From: Escherichia coli
GTDB lineage: Bacteria; Pseudomonadota; Gammaproteobacteria; Enterobacterales; Enterobacteriaceae
Reading direction: 5' to 3' (one strand)
DNA length: 64,000 bases
Assembly (NCBI RefSeq): GCF_003790525.1
Contig: NZ_CP033635.1
Shown: one piece after another, positions 16,636 through 57,488 of the stretch
Numbering within the stretch: position 1 is the stretch's first letter
How the letters are laid out: each line of letters opens with the position of its first letter
Program-made: the position numbers and the translations under genes
The notes under the pieces: model-generated
What the model was told of the DNA's origin: nothing
Database searches by the model: none
Seen by the model: only the letters and a program-made list of their open reading frames with translations

Positions 16636-16663
16636 GTCAAAAAAAACGCCGGATTAACCGGCG
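16636..16663 (-). terminator. intrinsic terminator downstream of fadD
   Basis: Minus strand ACGCCGG-TTAAT-CCGGCGT followed by TTTTTTTT. Confidence 0.7.
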
Positions 16664-16683
16664 TCTGACGACTGACTTAACGC

Positions 16684-18369
16684 TCAGGCTTTATTGTCCA
16701 CTTTGCCGCGCGCTTCGTCACGTAATTCTCGTCGCAAAATTTTTCCGACGTTAGATTTCGGTAACTCATCACGAAACTCCACCAGCTTCGGTACTTTGTA
16801 GCCCGTGAGCTGACGGCGGCAAAAAGTCACCAGTGACTCTTCGGTAAGCGATGGATCTTTTTTCACAACGAAGATTTTCACCGCTTCACCACTAGAGCCG
16901 GAAGGTACGCCAACAGCCGCGACTTCCTGTACGCCAGGATGCTGCATGACGACATCTTCAATCTCGTTGGGATAGACGTTAAAACCGGAAACCAGAATCA
17001 TGTCTTTTTTACGATCGACAATGCGCAGGAATCCTTCTTCATCCATCACCGCGATGTCGCCGGTGTGTAACCAGCCATTTTTGATGATTTCATCGGTAGC
17101 ATCCGGACGCTGCCAGTAACCCAGCATCACCTGCGGTCCTTTGACACAAAGCTCACCTGGTTGACCAGGTGGTACTTCATTATCATCATCATCCACCAGT
17201 TTGGCTTCCGTCGACGGCACCGGCAAACCGATGCTACCACTATGATAATCAATATCATACGGGTTAACGCTCACCAGCGGCGCACACTCGGTCAGGCCAT
17301 AACCTTCCAGCAGATACTGTCCAGTCAGTTTCACCCAACGTTCTGCCACCACTTGCTGAACAGGCATCCCTCCGCCTGCGGAAAGATGCAGACTGGAGAA
17401 ATCCAGCTGCTGGAACTCTTTATTGTTCAGCAACGCATTGAACAAGGTGTTAACGCCAGTGATAGCGGTAAACGGATATTTCGCTAACTCTTTTACCAAC
17501 CCTGGAATATCGCGCGGGTTAGTGATAAGCAGGTTCTGCCCCCCCAGTTCGATAAACAGCAGGCAGTTAATGGTCAGTGCAAAAATGTGATACAGCGGCA
17601 GCGCCGTCACCACCAGCTCTTTGCCCGGATGCAACAGCGGACCATAGGTCGCGTTAACCTGTTCCAGGTTCGCCAGCATATTGCGGTGAGTCAGCATCGC
17701 GCCTTTCGCCACACCAGTGGTACCGCCGGTGTATTGCAGGAAAGCTAAATCTTCCGGCACCAGTTCGGGTTTGACGTACTGCATCCGGTAGCCGTTGTGC
17801 AGGGCGCTACGAAATGAAATGGCATCTGGCAGATGGTATTTCGGCACCAGACGCTTGATGTATTTAACAACGAAATTGACTACCGTGCCTTTTGCCGTAG
17901 ATAGCTGATCGCCCATACGGGTCAGAATTACGTGCTGAACGGCGGTTTTATCAACCACTTTTTCCAGAGTGTGGGCAAAGTTAGACACGATAACAATCGC
18001 CGATGCGCCGCTATCGTTAAGCTGATGCTCAAGTTCACGCGGGGTATACAACGGGTTAACGTTTACGACAATCATCCCGGCACGCAAAATGCCAAACAGC
18101 GCCACCGGATATTGCAATAAATTAGGCATCATCAACGCAACGCGATCGCCTTTCTTCAGTCCCAACCCTTGTTGCAAATAAGCGGCAAACGCGCGACTGC
18201 GTTCTTCCAGTTTGCGGAAGGTCATCACCTCCCCCATATTCACAAACGCGGGTTGATCGGCGTAGCGCGCGACCGACTGCTCAAACATATCTACCAGAGA
18301 TTGATAACGGTCAGGGTTGATCTCCGTCGGAACGTCCGCGGGATAACGGTTAAGCCAAACCTTCTTCAA
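16684..18369 (-). CDS. fadD: long-chain-fatty-acid--CoA ligase FadD, 561 aa
   Basis: ORF 16684..18435; the 561-aa product begins [33 protein letters not shown]..., implying a TTG start at 18369; AMP-binding motifs present. Confidence 0.93.
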
Positions 18370-35682: not shown

Positions 35683-35775
35683 GACAACTCCGGCAGGATA
35701 CTAAAGGCCGCAAGTGTAACGCGAATCACGCGGCGGGCAAATATCCGAACGCCAGGAGCGAAGATAAAGCAAAGT

Positions 35776-35803
35776 AAAAAGCCTCGCATTCGGCGAGGCT
35801 TTA
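35776..35803 (-). terminator. intrinsic terminator downstream of cspC
   Basis: Minus strand AAAGCCTCGCC-GAAT-GCGAGGCTTT followed by TT. Confidence 0.7.
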
Positions 35804-35847
35804 TAGCGAGATTGAAGCGTATTCACACTTCAGATCAGTGGATTCGA

Positions 35848-36057
35848 TCAGATAGCTGTTACGTTAACAGCTGCCGGACCTTTCTGGCCGTCCTGAATTT
35901 CGAACTCAACGTTCTGACCTTCAGCCAGAGTTTTGAAGCCATTACCCTGGATAGCGGAGAAGTGTACGAACACGTCTTTGCTGCCATCAGCCGGAGTAAT
36001 GAAGCCAAAACCTTTAGACTCGTTGAACCACTTAACCTGACCTTTAATCTTTGCCAT
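35848..36057 (-). CDS. cspC: cold shock-like protein CspC, 69 aa
   Basis: Full-length ORF; [22 protein letters not shown]... with RNP motifs. Confidence 0.97.
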
Positions 36058-36069
36058 TTGAAAAATTCC

Positions 36070-36213
36070 TTAGATTGTTTTCTTCGCCCGCAGGCATAAC
36101 ATAGATAAAACTGACACATTACTGCATGAGGCACCAATATAAGGCTCGGCAGAGAAGCGGTATTCAACGTCAACGTGTTTACTCAGGACTTCTTTACTGA
36201 AAATGCCACACAT
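36070..36213 (-). CDS. yobF: small protein YobF, 47 aa
   Basis: Minus-strand translation [47 protein letters not shown]; ends 12 nt upstream of cspC (yobF-cspC operon). Confidence 0.82.
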
Positions 36214-36882
36214 AAACAGAACTGTACCTCGTTTAACCCGAAATCTGTTATCACATACAACGTTAATTATGGCAAGCCATTTTTAAACATGTCTCGATCA
36301 GACGCACAAATCTCGATACGTCTTCCACTTTTTTTGCACACTTATGCAACGGAATACGCGCCGATATATCATTGTGCTTAACCTTGCCAGTTCAGGCAGA
36401 TACTTAAACTGACGTATTTTCTAACATAGTTCAATAAGTTCAGTTGTTCCATGCCAATGGGAGAAGTTATTACATAGTGCGTGCAATATCACATTTTCTG
36501 CTATGCAATGAATAAAAAGTTATATCACTTTTTCTCATAAAACAGTCAGTTAACGGCCATCAATCACCCCAAAGAGAAGTCAATCGCCAAAGGTATTGTA
36601 AATTTAAAATAAGAAAAATTGATGAATGCGCAAAAAAATCAAGAGAGAAACGTTTCGCTAATAAATAATACCACGCTTAATCACAAATCCGATGTAAACA
36701 TCCTAATAAATTAATGGGCTAAATATCTTTTTCTGATATCCCGTTACGCAAATAAATAATATGATAATTATTTGAAGTCAGACCAGAGTTTTAATTTGAA
36801 GCAGTTGCACCATGACAGTGCGTATAATCAGGATGAATTGAGTAACCCTTCAACGACGGGGTTACTCAAGATTGAGGAAGGA

Positions 36883-48844: not shown

Positions 48845-50284
48845 GTGGCCCAACACACCGTTTATTTCCCGGACGCCTTTCTGACACAAATGCGCGAAGC
48901 TATGCCTTCGACGCTCTCTTTTGATGATTTTCTTGCCGCCTGTCAGCGCCCGTTGCGCCGCAGCATTCGCGTTAATACGCTGAAAATCTCCGTTGCTGAT
49001 TTCCTGCAATTAACCGCTCCTTATGGCTGGACGCTTACGCCAATTCCGTGGTGTGAAGAAGGTTTCTGGATTGAACGCGACGATGAAGATGCATTGCCAT
49101 TGGGTAGTACCGCCGAGCATTTAAGCGGCCTGTTTTATATTCAGGAAGCCAGTTCAATGTTGCCCGTTGCCGCCTTGTTTGCTGACGGTAATGCACCACA
49201 GCGGGTGATGGATGTCGCTGCCGCGCCCGGCTCCAAAACGACGCAAATTGCCGCGCGGATGAATAACGAAGGGGCGATCCTTGCCAATGAGTTTTCCGCC
49301 AGTCGGGTAAAAGTGTTACATGCCAATATCAGCCGCTGTGGCATCAGTAATGTTGCGCTCACACATTTTGATGGCCGCGTGTTTGGTGCGGCAGTGCCAG
49401 AAATGTTCGATGCCATTTTGCTGGACGCTCCCTGCTCCGGCGAAGGCGTGGTGCGTAAAGATCCCGATGCGCTAAAAAACTGGTCACCAGAAAGCAATCA
49501 GGAAATCGCAGCGACCCAACGGGAACTGATCGACAGCGCCTTTCATGCATTACGCCCTGGCGGTACGCTGGTTTACTCGACCTGTACCTTAAACAGGGAA
49601 GAAAACGAAGCCGTTTGCCTGTGGCTGAAAGAGACTTACCCCGACGCAGTAGAGTTTTTACCGCTTGGCGATCTCTTCCCTGGTGCAAATAAGGCGCTGA
49701 CCGAAGAAGGCTTTTTGCATGTTTTCCCACAAATTTACGACTGCGAAGGCTTCTTCGTTGCTCGTCTGCGTAAAACTCAGGCGATCCCCGTCTTACCCGC
49801 CCCAAAATACAAAGTGGGCAATTTCCCGTTTAGCCCGGTGAAAGATCGCGAAGCCGGTCAAATTCGTCAGGCGGCTGCAGGTGTTGGCTTAAACTGGGAT
49901 GGAAACCTGCGACTCTGGCAACGCGACAAAGAACTGTGGTTGTTCCCGGTAGGCATTGAAGCCCTGATCGGTAAAGTCCGATTTTCTCGGTTGGGGATTA
50001 AACTTGCCGAAACGCATAACAAAGGTTATCGCTGGCAGCATGAAGCGGTTATTGCCCTTGCCTCCCCCGACAATGTGAACGCTTTTGAACTGACACCGCA
50101 GGAAGCGGAAGAGTGGTATCGCGGGCGCGATGTTTACCCGCAAGCCGCGCCAGTAGCGGATGATGTATTGGTTACTTTCCAGCATCAGCCGATTGGTTTA
50201 GCCAAACGAATTGGTTCGCGACTGAAAAACAGCTACCCGCGTGAACTGGTGCGAGACGGGAAACTTTTTACCGGTAACGCCTGA
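48845..50284 (+). CDS. rsmF: 16S rRNA (cytosine1407-C5)-methyltransferase RsmF (YebU), 479 aa
   Basis: ORF 48839..50284; GTG at 48845 gives the 479-aa product ([12 protein letters not shown]...); SAM-dependent MTase fold with catalytic Cys ([11 protein letters not shown]). Confidence 0.92.
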
Positions 50285-50401
50285 CAGCGCACAAAAAAAG
50301 CGCACTTTTTGACTGGCACATTCGGCTGCCTCAACTAGGCTGAAAAATGGTGCGATCGGACTGGTCGTACCACAATCGGCAGCTAAATGGAGAGCACGAA
50401 G

Positions 50402-50638
50402 ATGAAAACCAGTGTGCGCATAGGCGCTTTTGAAATCGACGACGGCGAATTACACGGCGAATCGCCGGGTGATCGAACGTTAACCATTCCTTGTAAATCA
50501 GACCCCGATTTATGTATGCAACTGGATGCCTGGGATGCTGAAACCAGTATCCCTGCCCTGCTAAATGGCGAACACTCTGTCCTTTACCGTACCCGTTACG
50601 ATCAACAATCTGATGCCTGGATTATGCGTCTTGCCTGA
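50402..50638 (+). CDS. yebV: uncharacterised protein YebV, 78 aa
   Basis: ORF 50387..50638; ATG at 50402 gives 78 aa (MKTSVRIGAFEIDDGELHG...). Confidence 0.88.
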   Translation: MKTSVRIGAFEIDDGELHGESPGDRTLTIPCKSDPDLCMQLDAWDAETSIPALLNGEHSVLYRTRYDQQSDAWIMRLA

Positions 50639-50742
50639 TCCAAAAAGAACCCGTCGGCATGGCGGGTTATTTGTCCTGGTTATTCCCCCGTTGTAAAATC
50701 TCACCTAAACTTAACGGTACGGCACCACACTTCGGGGATGAA

Positions 50743-50934
50743 ATGTTCGCGCTGGTACTTTTTGTTTGCTACCTGGATGGCGGTTGTGAAGATATTGTTG
50801 TGGATGTCTACAACACGGAACAGCAGTGTCTTTATTCTATGAGCGATCAACGGATCCGCCATGGCGGTTGTTTTCCGATTGAGGATTTTATAGATGGTTT
50901 CTGGCGACCTGCACAGGAATACGGTGATTTTTAA
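50743..50934 (+). CDS. yebW: uncharacterised protein YebW, 63 aa
   Basis: ORF 50659..50934; ATG at 50743 gives 63 aa (MFALVLFVCYLDGGCEDIVVDVYNTEQQCLY...). Confidence 0.85.
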   Translation: MFALVLFVCYLDGGCEDIVVDVYNTEQQCLYSMSDQRIRHGGCFPIEDFIDGFWRPAQEYGDF

Positions 50935-51591
50935 TTATTGCAATTGCACAAGAGTCAGTTCGCCCCCAAAGACAGCACCTGTATCAATATAATGCAGGTT
51001 GCCAATATCCACGCGATGGCGCAACGGTGTATGACCAAACCAGAAATGATCAGCACCTGTAATTCCCTGCCCTTTTTGGCGTTCACCTAACCGCGAGCGG
51101 CTCCACAAGACCTGATGCAAATCGACGTCCTTTTGCCATTCATAAACATCATCCGGATAATCGGCATGGGCAATAACATGTTTGCCGGTGCGACTGTGTA
51201 CTTCAAGAATAAAGGGCAAATACTGACATTTTTCCAGCGCCGTTTTCGCTTGTTTCTGTTGATAATCTGCCAGCGCAATAAACCAGTTGCCGCCATTCAT
51301 CAACCACAAAGACATCTGCTGGGATGCCAGCGCATCCATCGCCATCTGTTCATGATTGCCTCTTACCGCACGAACCCAATGTTGTTCCAGTAACTGCAGA
51401 CAACGTAAACTTTGCTGCCCACGATCGATAACGTCTCCCACTGAGATAAGTAAATCTCGCCACGGATCAAAACGACAATGCCATAATTTGCGGCGCAACT
51501 GCTCAAGACAACCGTGTATATCGCCTGAAAGCCAGATATGTCGCCATTGATGACCCGCAATTCTCTGATAAACGGGCGCAGGCTGTTTCAT
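50935..51591 (-). CDS. pphA: serine/threonine protein phosphatase 1 PphA (PrpA), 218 aa
   Basis: ORF 50935..51594; metallophosphatase motifs (GDIHG, GDVIDRG, GNHE); stop directly abuts the yebW stop. Confidence 0.93.
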   Translation of the reverse strand: MKQPAPVYQRIAGHQWRHIWLSGDIHGCLEQLRRKLWHCRFDPWRDLLISVGDVIDRGQQSLRCLQLLEQHWVRAVRGNHEQMAMDALASQQMSLWLMNGGNWFIALADYQQKQAKTALEKCQYLPFILEVHSRTGKHVIAHADYPDDVYEWQKDVDLHQVLWSRSRLGERQKGQGITGADHFWFGHTPLRHRVDIGNLHYIDTGAVFGGELTLVQLQ

Positions 51592-51725
51592 CAATATTTT
51601 CCTCCCGCGCTAAAGATCACATAATCTTAACAAGAATGTTAAAAAACGCTGGACTCAGACAGTAGAGTGTGTGTTATGGTTGACTATAAAGTCAGCGAAG
51701 GGAATGCTTCTGGCTTTTAACAGAT

Positions 51726-51828
51726 AAAAAGAGACCGAACACGATTCCTGTATTCGGTCCAGGGAAATGGCTCTTGGGAGAGAGCCGTGCGCTAAAAGTT
51801 GGCATTAATGCAGGCTTAGTTGCCTTGC
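51726..51828 (-). ncRNA. sdsR: small regulatory RNA SdsR (RyeB)
   Basis: Minus strand reads GCAAGGCAACUAAGCCUGCAUUAAUGCCAACUUUUAGCGCACGGCUCUCUCCCAAGAGCCAUUUCCCUGGACCGAAUACAGGAAUCGUGUUCGGUCUCUUUUU, matching remembered SdsR including its 3' terminator hairpin and U-tail; sigma-S-type -10 (CTATTCTTAA) just upstream. Confidence 0.85.
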
Positions 51829-51915
51829 TCTTTAAGAATAGATGACGACGCCAGATTTTCCAGTTTGCGTGCAAAATGGTCAATAAAAAGCGCGGTGGTC
51901 ATCAGCTTAAATGTT

Positions 51916-51957
51916 AAAAACCGCCCGTTCTGGTGAAAGAACTGAGGCGGTTTTTTT
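51916..51957. terminator. bidirectional intrinsic terminator (RyeA on +, yebY on -)
   Basis: AAAAACCGCCCGTTC-loop-GAACTGAGGCGGTTTTTTT; A-run and T-run flank an imperfect stem. Confidence 0.65.
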
Positions 51958-51986
51958 ATTGGAAATCAAAAGGCTATTTTAGGTAA

Positions 51987-52328
51987 TTAACAGAGTTTTT
52001 CAGCTCGTTCTATAAACGGTGCCAGACTCATTTTTTCGCCGGGATTGTTAGGATCATTAATCTGAATCACCGAAATGGGTTGGGCTTTAGTCTTCCCACT
52101 GGCAACTTCCTTTTGTGCGATATCGTTTAAAGGATACTGCACGAGGGTACTTGGGTTGATGACATACAAAGCATTACCCGGTCGGCAAGTCAGCATCACC
52201 TCTTCGCGATTAAACGCCCATTTGTCTTTACCCACTTCAAAACGGCTGACGGTAATCACCTGCGGTGCAGCCAGCGCCGCTGCAGAACTGGTGAGTAACA
52301 GAAACGCCAGAATACTTTTTTTCATCAT
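51987..52328 (-). CDS. yebY: DUF2511 periplasmic protein YebY, 113 aa
   Basis: Full-length ORF; signal peptide ([20 protein letters not shown]). Confidence 0.9.
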
Positions 52329-52340
52329 TTTCGTAATCCA

Positions 52341-53213
52341 TCAAAAAGGTTCGAGAGTCGCAAGCAGGCTGATGATCACCAGCACTACCGCACCTATCGC
52401 CCATTCGAGTTTAGTCATCCACACAAACCAGGGTGCCGCACGATCTTCATCCTGCCTCATGCGCGGTACAAGAACATAACGATTAGCCAGCGCAATGACC
52501 ACCATAATCATCACCAGGATGGCTTTGAGCAATAAGAGTTGGCCCCAGTAAGTCGTAAGCGTGGGGGGAAATCCGGTAATCAACAATGCATTAAGCACGC
52601 CGCTTGCCAGTACGCCGATCACCGCAAAATGCCCGCACCAGGAAAAACGCATCAGCGCCTGAATAGCCTGGTGTCGCCAACGGCCTTTGATGAGTTGCAT
52701 ACACCAGAGCACCGGCAGTAATCCCCCAAACCACGCCGCCGCACAAATCAGGTGAATCGCGTGATTAGTCTGATGGATTTTCGCCGTTACCCCTTCATTC
52801 AGCGTCGCATGCCCGACTCCCGCCAGCAGAAAAAATTGCGCGGTAGTGAGCATAAACAGCAAACGTGGCATATTCCGCGGTTGCATAAGGGCGACGATCA
52901 ACGTTACGAGGGCGAGAACAATTTGCCATAACCAGACGCCACCAAACTGCGCTTGCAAAACAGCCTGCCAAATGTTTGGCGAAAATACATCTGACCATCC
53001 CGTTCCCATCAACCCGCCCTGAACGGCGAGCATTGCAGTGGCACTGATCAAACTCCAGACGGCAGCGTGCTGTTGTAAACGCAGAAAACGCTTCGTCAGC
53101 AAGCGACGAATCGTTAAGGGGGCCAGCCAGGCACCGTACATTGCGAAGCCAAAAACCAACATCAGCGAGGTGAAATGGATAAATCGCAGCGCGATCCAGG
53201 TAAACGCCAGCAT
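52341..53213 (-). CDS. yebZ: CopD-family inner membrane protein YebZ, 290 aa
   Basis: Full-length ORF; 8-TM CopD-like profile. Confidence 0.92.
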   Translation of the reverse strand: MLAFTWIALRFIHFTSLMLVFGFAMYGAWLAPLTIRRLLTKRFLRLQQHAAVWSLISATAMLAVQGGLMGTGWSDVFSPNIWQAVLQAQFGGVWLWQIVLALVTLIVALMQPRNMPRLLFMLTTAQFFLLAGVGHATLNEGVTAKIHQTNHAIHLICAAAWFGGLLPVLWCMQLIKGRWRHQAIQALMRFSWCGHFAVIGVLASGVLNALLITGFPPTLTTYWGQLLLLKAILVMIMVVIALANRYVLVPRMRQDEDRAAPWFVWMTKLEWAIGAVVLVIISLLATLEPF

Positions 53214-53216
53214 GAT

Positions 53217-53591
53217 TTATTTCACGCTAAAGGTGTAGTGTCCTTTCGTTTTATGCCCGTCCACCGAAACAACATGCCAGTTAACGGTGTAGGTTCCGGG
53301 TTTCAGCGAATCGGCCAGTGGAACAATCAGTTGCTTTGGGTCCTGCTCATTTCGCTTCGCCGGTAATGTTTTAATATTTTCGTTTTTTGGCCCCGTGATT
53401 TTTGCACCACTGAATCCTGTTTCAACGCCTTCCGAGAAGTTTAAAGTGATTGCCTGCGGGGCAGCTGTCAGTTGCGCATTTGCTGCAGGATACTGATGCA
53501 TTAAATGCGCATGTGCCCAGACGGAAGGTGTCACCAACGAAGTGGTCAGGATTGCCAGCGCGTAGCGAAGGGAGCGTGCAGTTGAAGCCAT
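53217..53591 (-). CDS. yobA: CopC-family periplasmic copper-binding protein YobA, 124 aa
   Basis: Full-length ORF; signal peptide ending VWA, predicted mature N-terminus HAHLMHQ (His1 as in CopC). Confidence 0.92.
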   Translation of the reverse strand: MASTARSLRYALAILTTSLVTPSVWAHAHLMHQYPAANAQLTAAPQAITLNFSEGVETGFSGAKITGPKNENIKTLPAKRNEQDPKQLIVPLADSLKPGTYTVNWHVVSVDGHKTKGHYTFSVK

Positions 53592-53729
53592 ATTATCTAT
53601 TCCTTTTTGTAATAACTTTTTTACAGAGCATAACCTTGTCTAATGTCTGAGTCGAGGATCATCAATTCCGGCTTGCCATCCAGGCTCACTCTTAGTAACT
53701 TTTGCCCGCGAATGATGAGGAGATTAAGA

Positions 53730-53960
53730 ATGCTGAAGAATCTGGCTAAACTGGATCAAACAGAAATGGATAAAGTGAATGTCGATTTGGCGGCGGCAGG
53801 GGTTGCATTTAAAGAACGCTACAATATGCCGGTGATCGCTGAAGCGGTTGAACGTGAACAGCCTGAACATTTGCGCAGCTGGTTTCGCGAGCGGCTTATC
53901 GCCCACCGTTTGGCTTCGGTCAATCTGTCACGTTTACTTTACGAGCCCAAACTTAAATAA
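53730..53960 (+). CDS. holE: DNA polymerase III theta subunit HolE, 76 aa
   Basis: ORF 53643..53960; ATG at 53730 after GAGGAG gives 76 aa ([35 protein letters not shown]...). Confidence 0.92.
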
Positions 53961-54061
53961 AACTTATACATAGTTACACTTTCTTACATAACGCCTGCTA
54001 AATTATGAGTATTTTCTAAACCGCACCCATAATTTGCAGTCATTTTGAAAAGGAAGTCATT

Positions 54062-54718
54062 ATGTCGTTCTGGAAAGTTGCAGCAGCGCAATATGAGCCT
54101 CGTAAAACCTCACTCACCGAACAGGTAGCTCATCATCTGGAGTTTGTGAGGGCCGCCGCCAGGCAACAATGTCAGCTGTTAGTTTTTCCATCGCTTTCTT
54201 TACTGGGGTGTGATTATTCGCGACGTGCCCTTCCTGCCCCCCCCGATCTCTCGCTATTAGACCCGCTTTGTTATGCTGCAACGACCTGGCGAATGACTAT
54301 CATTGCCGGCCTTCCCGTTGAATATAACGATCGCTTTATTCGTGGAATTGCGGTGTTCGCACCGTGGCGAAAAACGCCAGGGATCTACCATCAGAGTTAT
54401 GGTGCATGTCTGGGCCGTCGTTCCAGAACCATCACGGTGGTCGATGAACAACCGGAAGGTATGGATATGGACCCGACCTGTTCACTGTTTACGACAGGGC
54501 AATGTCTGGGAGAACCCGACCTGCTGGCGTCGGCCCGTCGCTTACAATTTTTTTCACATCAGTACTCGATTGCTGTGCTGATGGCAAATGCCCGTGGTAA
54601 CAGTGCACTATGGGATGAACATGGTCGTCTCATCGTTCGCGCCGATCGTGGTTCATTATTGTTAGTCGGTCAGCGTTCATCACAGGGTTGGCAAGGCGAT
54701 ATCATTCCATTACGCTAG
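54062..54718 (+). CDS. yobB: carbon-nitrogen hydrolase (nitrilase superfamily) protein YobB, 218 aa
   Basis: Full-length ORF; conserved position between holE and exoX. Confidence 0.9.
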   Translation: MSFWKVAAAQYEPRKTSLTEQVAHHLEFVRAAARQQCQLLVFPSLSLLGCDYSRRALPAPPDLSLLDPLCYAATTWRMTIIAGLPVEYNDRFIRGIAVFAPWRKTPGIYHQSYGACLGRRSRTITVVDEQPEGMDMDPTCSLFTTGQCLGEPDLLASARRLQFFSHQYSIAVLMANARGNSALWDEHGRLIVRADRGSLLLVGQRSSQGWQGDIIPLR

Positions 54719-54741
54719 GCTTTTTCGGCCTGGAGCATGCC

Positions 54742-57488
<2,747 letters not shown>

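Follow-up and report, generated by a model that had tools for sequence, protein, structure and literature searches.

The pphA-yebY spacer of an Escherichia coli chromosome as a copy of the known sdsR/ryeA antisense sRNA pair, with conservation that tracks SdsR and its sigma-S promoter

The interval between pphA and yebY in the Escherichia coli DNA analyzed here (the window, 64,000 nucleotides of contig NZ_CP033635.1) is almost certainly the chromosomal sdsR/ryeA (ryeB/sraC) antisense sRNA pair of E. coli. No evidence speaks against this identity. The feature is already known and the copy described here is an ordinary one; it follows the K-12 paradigm throughout and so raises no new question, and the importance of the result is chiefly one of annotation. 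The locus also serves as a teaching example, in which convergent sigma-S and sigma-70 promoters, mutual RNA degradation, interference, read-through and an att-site terminator are found together.

The Rfam scan of the locus covered 49000-55000, and both strands of 51400-52200 were read directly. Direct strand reading, Rfam and folding located all of the elements named in the original prediction, and its central proposal, an overlapping SdsR (RyeB) and RyeA (SraC) pair, agreed with Rfam matches on both strands and with the MG1655 annotation. The flanking genes it had named were likewise recovered, both on the minus strand: pphA (phosphoprotein phosphatase 1) at 50935..51591, from the ORFs and annotation, and yebY, the upstream neighbor of sdsR on the same strand, annotated at 51987..52328. 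The 392-bp spacer between them (51595-51986) is 100% identical to that of E. coli SMS-3-5 (NC_010498.1 1336729-1337120). Of 5426 complete E. coli genomes, 5425 gave a match, and in 5188 of these a single stretch accounted for 80% or more of the spacer. An Rfam scan of the whole 64-kb window revealed no second SdsR/RyeA copy. Other matches in the window above the gathering score were a cspA-type thermoregulator 5' UTR (35773-36233, minus strand, 137.6 bits) and the sRNA SroD (16640-16725, minus strand, 115.2 bits). Near the locus, matches to rliE, mir-216, sR35 and sR23 fell far under their gathering thresholds and were set aside as chance.

On the minus strand, the full RF00111 (SdsR_RyeB) model (positions 1-100 of 100) was matched at 51825..51726; the score of 114.4 bits (E=1.7e-22) is far in excess of the gathering cutoff of 38. 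Together with projection from MG1655 and published ends, this match places the primary SdsR (RyeB) transcript of approximately 103 nt at 51726..51828. In K-12, primer extension puts SdsR +1 at the equivalent of 51828, one base past the start given in the older annotation (Choi et al., 2019; PMC6610125); 51828 is the very base at which the sRNA had been predicted to start, and the 3' ends lie at +100..+102, equivalent to 51729-51727 (PMC6610125). Positions +1 to +103 are 100% identical to K-12, and the RNA folds as three hairpins with a minimum free energy of -34.6 kcal/mol (z -3.7). With its K-12 counterpart, gene b4433, the copy shares the promoter type, the place downstream of yebY and the three-hairpin fold; it differs in the base at -1 (the older annotated +1), which is A here and G in K-12, and in one spacer substitution at -27. 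Given this 100% sequence identity, SdsR in this strain would be expected to accumulate in stationary phase in an RpoS-dependent manner, to bind Hfq and to repress its targets in trans.

The Rho-independent terminator of SdsR occupies 51726..51760 on the minus strand, as determined by a terminator scan, folding and covariation, and consists of an 11-bp stem with 2 G.U pairs, a 7-nt loop and a U-tail. Its sequence occurs once in the 64 kb, where 0 matches are expected, and the elements seen at the locus are not due to chance. The hairpin and U-tail had been correctly foreseen, but the string quoted for them, CCGAACACGAUUCCUGUAUUCGG, is the plus-strand (RyeA-sense) reading; read directly on the SdsR strand, the hairpin is CCGAAUACAGGAAUCGUGUUCGG. 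Across orthologues, 100% of the cells in the terminator helix are paired, and 3 pairs show compensatory changes. The hairpin is stronger on the minus strand (-15.8 kcal/mol) than on the plus strand (-11.1 kcal/mol), because several G.U terminator pairs in SdsR become A.C mismatches on the RyeA strand. Selection therefore acts on the SdsR strand, whose fold the G.U pairs favor.

The sdsR promoter is of the sigma-S type and lies at 51832..51862 on the minus strand, an assignment that draws on the primer-defined -10, on conservation and on published sigma-S dependence. It comprises a -35 element TGGAAA (51862-51857), a 16-nt spacer, C at -13 (51841), a -10 element TATTCT (51840-51835) and the A/T-rich discriminator TAA. 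All of the properties given for sigma-S promoters by Frohlich et al. (2012; PMC3333887), namely C at -13, a -10 of the form TAYNCT, an A/T-rich discriminator and a 16-bp spacer, are present. The -10 itself was defined by the CTCGAG replacement primers PM_SdsRF/R, GTCATC[TATTCT]TAAAGG (Choi et al., 2019; PMC6610125). The sigma-S-like -10 originally placed directly upstream of SdsR, CTATTCTTAA, corresponds to 51841..51832 (minus strand), or -13..-4 from the SdsR start, and includes both the mapped -10 and C-13. Each of C-13, T-12, A-11 and T-7 was found in 110 of the 110 listed Enterobacterales loci and C-8 in 107 of them; TGG and the last A of the -35 TGGAAA were present in all 110 listed loci.

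Both mapped -10 hexamers, that of sdsR and that of ryeA, are identical to K-12. The substitutions at 51855 (-27) and 51829 (-1) mean that the strength of the sdsR promoter could differ slightly from K-12. At 51855, in the sdsR spacer, the minus strand carries T, a minority base at 8% of the listed loci, and the C of K-12 is the majority base. A consensus promoter scan missed both of the experimentally defined promoters, and the minus-strand sites that it returned, TTGACC-17-GAAAAT (51883-51855) and CTGAAA-16-TAAAAT (52003-51976), were not counted as functional evidence. The former site, which is sigma-70-like, lies just upstream of the sdsR -35 and overlaps it, and a TTGAC block at 51888-51879 shows moderate conservation (0.57), above that of its neighbors. 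The site may act as an upstream element for the sdsR promoter, or may be a chance match.

On the plus strand, RyeA (SraC) spans 51688..51957 as an RNA of approximately 270 nt (261-272) that is antisense to all of SdsR, as supported by Rfam RF00101, MG1655 and RACE. The full RF00101 (SraC_RyeA) model (positions 1-145 of 145) was matched at 51722-51866 and scored 176.1 bits, the gathering cutoff being 37; the RyeA and SdsR genes overlap over 51726-51828. RyeA starts in K-12 at three adjacent sites (approximately 51686-51688), the most downstream of which is the annotated 51688, and its 3' RACE ends fall at +261..+270, equivalent to 51948-51957, with Rho-independent termination (PMC6610125). Complete coverage of SdsR by RyeA had been anticipated and holds; the length of about 250 nt that went with it does not, annotation and RACE giving approximately 261-272 nt.

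Transcription of RyeA is assigned to a sigma-70 promoter with an extended -10, TG-t-TATGGT, at 51672..51680 on the plus strand, which is taken from published mutagenesis primers and is identical to K-12. The -10 hexamer TATGGT (51675-51680) is given by the primers TGTGTGT[TATGGT->CTCGAG]TGACTATAAAG (Choi et al., 2019; PMC6610125), and the TATGGT to CTCGAG replacement, made with primers RyeA-p3 and PM_RyeAF, abolishes RyeA in K-12 (PMC6610125). The ryeA promoter and 5' region together are identical to K-12 bar one base. The original prediction had built its plus-strand promoter upon a TTGACT hexamer, which is indeed present at 51680-51685 (plus strand), but it overlaps the last base of the ryeA -10 and occupies -8..-3 of RyeA +1, between the mapped -10 and the start. 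With the -10 at 51675-51680 and the most downstream start at 51688, TTGACT cannot be the RyeA -35 and was rejected in that role.

At the other end of RyeA, a bidirectional Rho-independent terminator at 51916..51957 (inverted repeat I2) is common to RyeA and yebY. As had been proposed, it can serve both genes, since the hairpin folds well in either orientation: the plus-strand fold has -20.6 kcal/mol (z -3.8) and a U7 tail, the minus-strand fold -19.8 kcal/mol (z -6.0) and a U5 tail. The mapped RyeA 3' ends (51948-51957) lie within the tail of this terminator. A simple terminator scan, which found the SdsR terminator, missed this one owing to a bulge in the stem, so that direct folding was needed. 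In its extended -10, start region, terminator and complete antisense overlap of SdsR, the gene is the same as RyeA (SraC, Tpke79, IS091) of K-12, gene b4432, from which it differs by 5 substitutions across 272 nt. A 15-nt direct repeat, AATGTTAAAAA(A/C)CGC, with 93% identity between its copies, flanks the RyeA unit at 51635-51649 and 51910-51924. The upstream copy (51635-51649) contains TGtTAAAAA, a possible second extended -10 approximately 35 nt upstream of the mapped one. The distance agrees with that published for the longer form of SraC in Salmonella and Shigella, and may be chance.

The curated MG1655 record places ryeA at 1923066-1923337 (plus strand) and sdsR at 1923104-1923207 (minus strand). 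The window aligns to this region without indels and with 5 substitutions, so that the K-12 genes project directly to RyeA 51688-51959 and SdsR 51829-51726. The substitutions are at 51702, 51829, 51855, 51893 and 51908; all 5 are within RyeA and none is within the mapped SdsR. Although both sRNAs score far over their Rfam thresholds, neither the RefSeq/PGAP record for SMS-3-5 nor any of the 30 E. coli records that the similarity search listed annotates a feature in the spacer, and a spurious 63-aa protein could consequently arise there from naive ORF calling.

Circuit dynamics at this copy, as drawn from experiments in K-12 and Salmonella, would be those of two convergent promoters. The sigma-S-type promoter would fire on the minus strand at 51828 and yield the approximately 103-nt SdsR, ending at 51760-51726, and the sigma-70 extended -10 would fire on the plus strand at approximately 51688 and yield RyeA, antisense to both SdsR and the sdsR promoter and ending at 51916-51957. 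E-sigmaS transcribes sdsR, and RyeA is made in vitro by E-sigma70 only (PMC6610125). SdsR would build up in stationary phase and act in trans with Hfq on mRNAs such as tolC, mutS and yhcB (K-12) and ompD (Salmonella); its sigma-S dependence, Hfq association and repression of ompD are published (PMC3333887). RyeA would dominate in exponential phase; in K-12 it is the prevailing RNA early in exponential growth, and SdsR is the prevailing one in stationary phase (PMC6610125). The complementary RNAs would be expected to pair and destroy one another, the duplex being cut by RNase III. Mutation of each -10 raises the partner RNA and overexpression of either RNA hastens decay of the other (PMC6610125); additionally, among the clusters of RNase III-cleaved dsRNA recovered by p19 capture in stationary phase, ryeA-ryeB ranks first (PMC7373196).

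Transcription from the ryeA promoter would also lower sdsR transcription through polymerase collision, and read-through of the SdsR terminator would give an sdsR-pphA transcript, which would place the phosphatase gene under the same switch. In K-12, mutation of the ryeA -10 causes SdsR to appear earlier and raises pphA mRNA, and an sdsR(-379/+222)-lacZ read-through fusion is up approximately 4-fold in the ryeA promoter mutant (PMC6610125). This lacZ increase is not reversed by RyeA supplied in trans and is unaltered by a terminator mutation (PMC6610125), which argues for transcriptional interference by polymerase collision. Furthermore, most pphA transcription in K-12 originates at the sdsR promoter and reaches the gene through SdsR terminator read-through (PMC6610125).

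Species-representative genomes were scanned with an SdsR core pattern of 24 specified bases, which resulted in at least 120 SdsR loci, from Escherichia through Yersinia, Serratia, Dickeya and Rahnella. In the alignment of the 110 listed loci, where the 24 pattern bases are identical by construction and the rest was free to vary, identity to the window was 0.74-1.00 over SdsR (51828-51729) and 0.70-0.79 over the promoter (51868-51829). Just past the U-tail block it was 0.25-0.31 (51718-51699) and 0.18 (51698-51689) in the same listed loci, with a range of 0.18-0.39 over 51688-51718, and over the RyeA-only 3' part (51869-51915) it was 0.22-0.57. Conservation tracks SdsR and its sigma-S promoter, and the RyeA-only flanks are hypervariable. 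Within SdsR, the three helices were standard pairs in 98.9% of cells across 95 distinct orthologues among the matches listed. Compensatory double-sided changes were found in 7 SdsR pairs versus 1.8 +/- 1.0 in shuffles (0 of 500 shuffles as high), and register-shifted helix controls brought the paired fraction down to 21-43%.

The partner strand and the neighboring genes were compared across the same set. An element of the form TGnTA[TC][GA][GA]T occurs in the RyeA 5' flank of 26 of the 110 listed loci, at varying distances, and the ryeA promoter arrangement of the window was seen among the listed loci only in the E. coli representative. The published description is similar: sraC is poorly conserved, and the Salmonella -10 lies approximately 35 nt further upstream (PMC3333887). 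Of 111 listed loci, 104 have yebY upstream in the same orientation, the median distance between the end of the yebY match and SdsR +1 being 159 nt; the window fits this arrangement (yebY ends at 51987 and SdsR +1 is 51828). Downstream, pphA is present in only 5 of 88 listed loci (E. coli, three Citrobacter and one Atlantibacter). Taken together, the poor conservation of RyeA-specific sequence outside E. coli and the rarity of pphA in the listed loci indicate that both of these circuit parts are lineage-specific. The exact enterobacterial SdsR core was also seen in two Bacteroidota-labelled assemblies, Chryseobacterium sp. 18061 and a Flavobacterium psychrophilum MAG, most likely as a result of contamination or mis-binned contigs; Citrobacter sp. 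18056, from the same numbered '_Ancestor' isolate series as Chryseobacterium sp. 18061, is also among the loci.

A different reading of the locus is that it encodes a small protein, either from the 63-aa ORF at 51692..51883 (minus strand), which begins with TTG and extends across the sdsR promoter, the whole sRNA and the SdsR terminator, or from a nested 37-aa ORF that begins with the AUG at SdsR +24 (51805), making the locus an mRNA or a dual-function RNA. In favor of this reading, SMS-3-5 and K-12 alike keep the 63-aa frame open, most genera have the AUG at +24 and the stretch MPTFSARLSPKSHFPGPNTGIVFGLFL, and the sdsR-pphA read-through transcripts would include the nested ORF. We nevertheless consider translation highly improbable. 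The TTG precedes the SdsR start by 55 nt, so that the start codon is not on SdsR, and no Shine-Dalgarno sequence was seen in the strand reading before either the TTG (51883) or the AUG (51805). The 63-aa configuration exists in 2 of the 110 listed loci, most of the others carrying an in-frame stop within SdsR, and among these loci the ORF is confined to E. coli; indels of 1-2 nt, which would shift the frame, are found in the 5' stem-loop of many genera, and the C-terminal tails encoded where the frame remains open downstream bear no resemblance from one genus to another. The first, second and third codon positions of the ORF vary equally (0.106, 0.128 and 0.119), without periodicity, and all 3 of the ORF substitutions relative to K-12 are non-synonymous (I10T, S19G, S61F). 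A Pfam search of the ORF gave no match, neither the curated MG1655 nor the PGAP annotation has a CDS at this position, and our literature search found no report tying the locus to translation. What conservation there is at the peptide level is wholly accounted for by the compensatory RNA helices. The 63-aa ORF thus displays neither the kept frame, nor the codon-position bias, nor the family homology of a small protein-coding gene; it is a non-coding artefact, and the frame loss in orthologues, absent periodicity, indels, non-synonymous changes and empty Pfam search all bear out the earlier judgment to that effect. A plus-strand 38-aa ORF at 51820-51936, for which a coding reading was tried alongside the 63-aa and 37-aa ORFs, was likewise rejected or without support.

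Within the reading of the locus as an antisense sRNA pair, the standing of RyeA deserves separate weighing. SdsR-RyeA is one of two validated type VIII toxin-antitoxin loci (TADB 3.0, PMC10767807), catalogued as type VIII (RNA-RNA) because overexpressed SdsR is toxic via yhcB repression and RyeA counteracts it. Structurally, the window holds two RNA genes that overlap on opposite strands, as the type requires; the toxin-antitoxin label itself rests on overexpression phenotypes, in K-12. Among type VIII systems (SdsR-RyeA, CreT-CreA), the locus here is the SdsR-RyeA archetype itself. CreTA is linked to CRISPR-Cas whereas the SdsR-RyeA locus is not, and the SdsR toxin is primarily an Hfq-dependent sRNA of the sigma-S regulon with many targets. 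With RNase III-processed sense/antisense pairs such as type I Sib/Ibs it has convergent overlapping transcription, a duplex and RNase III cleavage in common; in contrast to Sib/Ibs, both partners are non-coding and no toxic peptide is made. SdsR might be suspected of being the sole element under selection, with RyeA a lineage-specific antisense transcript whose promoter happens to lie in a fast-evolving, insertion-scarred spacer, one that modulates SdsR and pphA in E. coli without being a dedicated antitoxin, such that the toxin-antitoxin label is overstated. The collapse of conservation right outside SdsR and its promoter, the presence of a comparable extended -10 at differing distances in just 26 of the 110 listed loci, and the G.U pairs that favor the SdsR-strand fold all point in this direction, as do published Grad-seq data, where the type I antitoxins SibA, SibB and SibC co-sediment with ProQ and RyeA does not. 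Set against it are the K-12 consequences of the ryeA -10 mutation described above (earlier SdsR, higher sdsR-lacZ and pphA mRNA; PMC6610125), the single base by which the ryeA promoter and 5' region differ between SMS-3-5 and K-12, and the finding that RyeA counteracts SdsR toxicity, as reported for Choi 2018 in the papers that cite it. Weighing both sides, we hold this narrower reading to be a genuine but lesser possibility.

The 3' end of SdsR is also where mobile elements come into the picture. The last 23 bp of ryeB (approximately 51726-51748) are described as a phage attachment site in a paper that cites Balbontin 2008 for it (PMC7380047). No second copy of the att core or terminator was found in the 64-kb window, and hence nothing is integrated here. 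Across listed loci, an extra att-core-like 9-mer lies within 150 nt downstream of SdsR in 26 of 106, versus 0 of 106 for a control region. The spacer downstream of SdsR (equivalent to 51570-51720) is hypervariable between genera, and partial core copies, GACCGAATA...TTCGG repeats, are seen in it; these extra partial terminator/att core copies look like scars of past integrations. In the listed loci, the extended -10 elements of the antisense RNA differ between genera and stand at different distances. One speculative proposal, which we regard as unlikely, is that the antisense partner is not one conserved gene and that its promoter has repeatedly been replaced by mobile elements integrating into the SdsR terminator. 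If true, antisense control of SdsR, and of pphA in E. coli, would have been rebuilt in each lineage from integration scars. The idea is partly published, since Balbontin et al. (2008) showed a change in the 5' part of ryeA upon integration of phage.

In keeping with an attachment site here, 237 of the 5425 matched E. coli genomes lack any one location that spans 80% or more of the spacer. In E. coli PEC148, the 3' end of SdsR directly adjoins a lambdoid prophage (int-xis-recET, ralR) at the position corresponding to 51725, which is consistent with the published att site in the ryeB 3' end. In E. coli FDAARGOS_944, an IS1 is inserted at the equivalent of approximately 51819, within the 5' part of SdsR.
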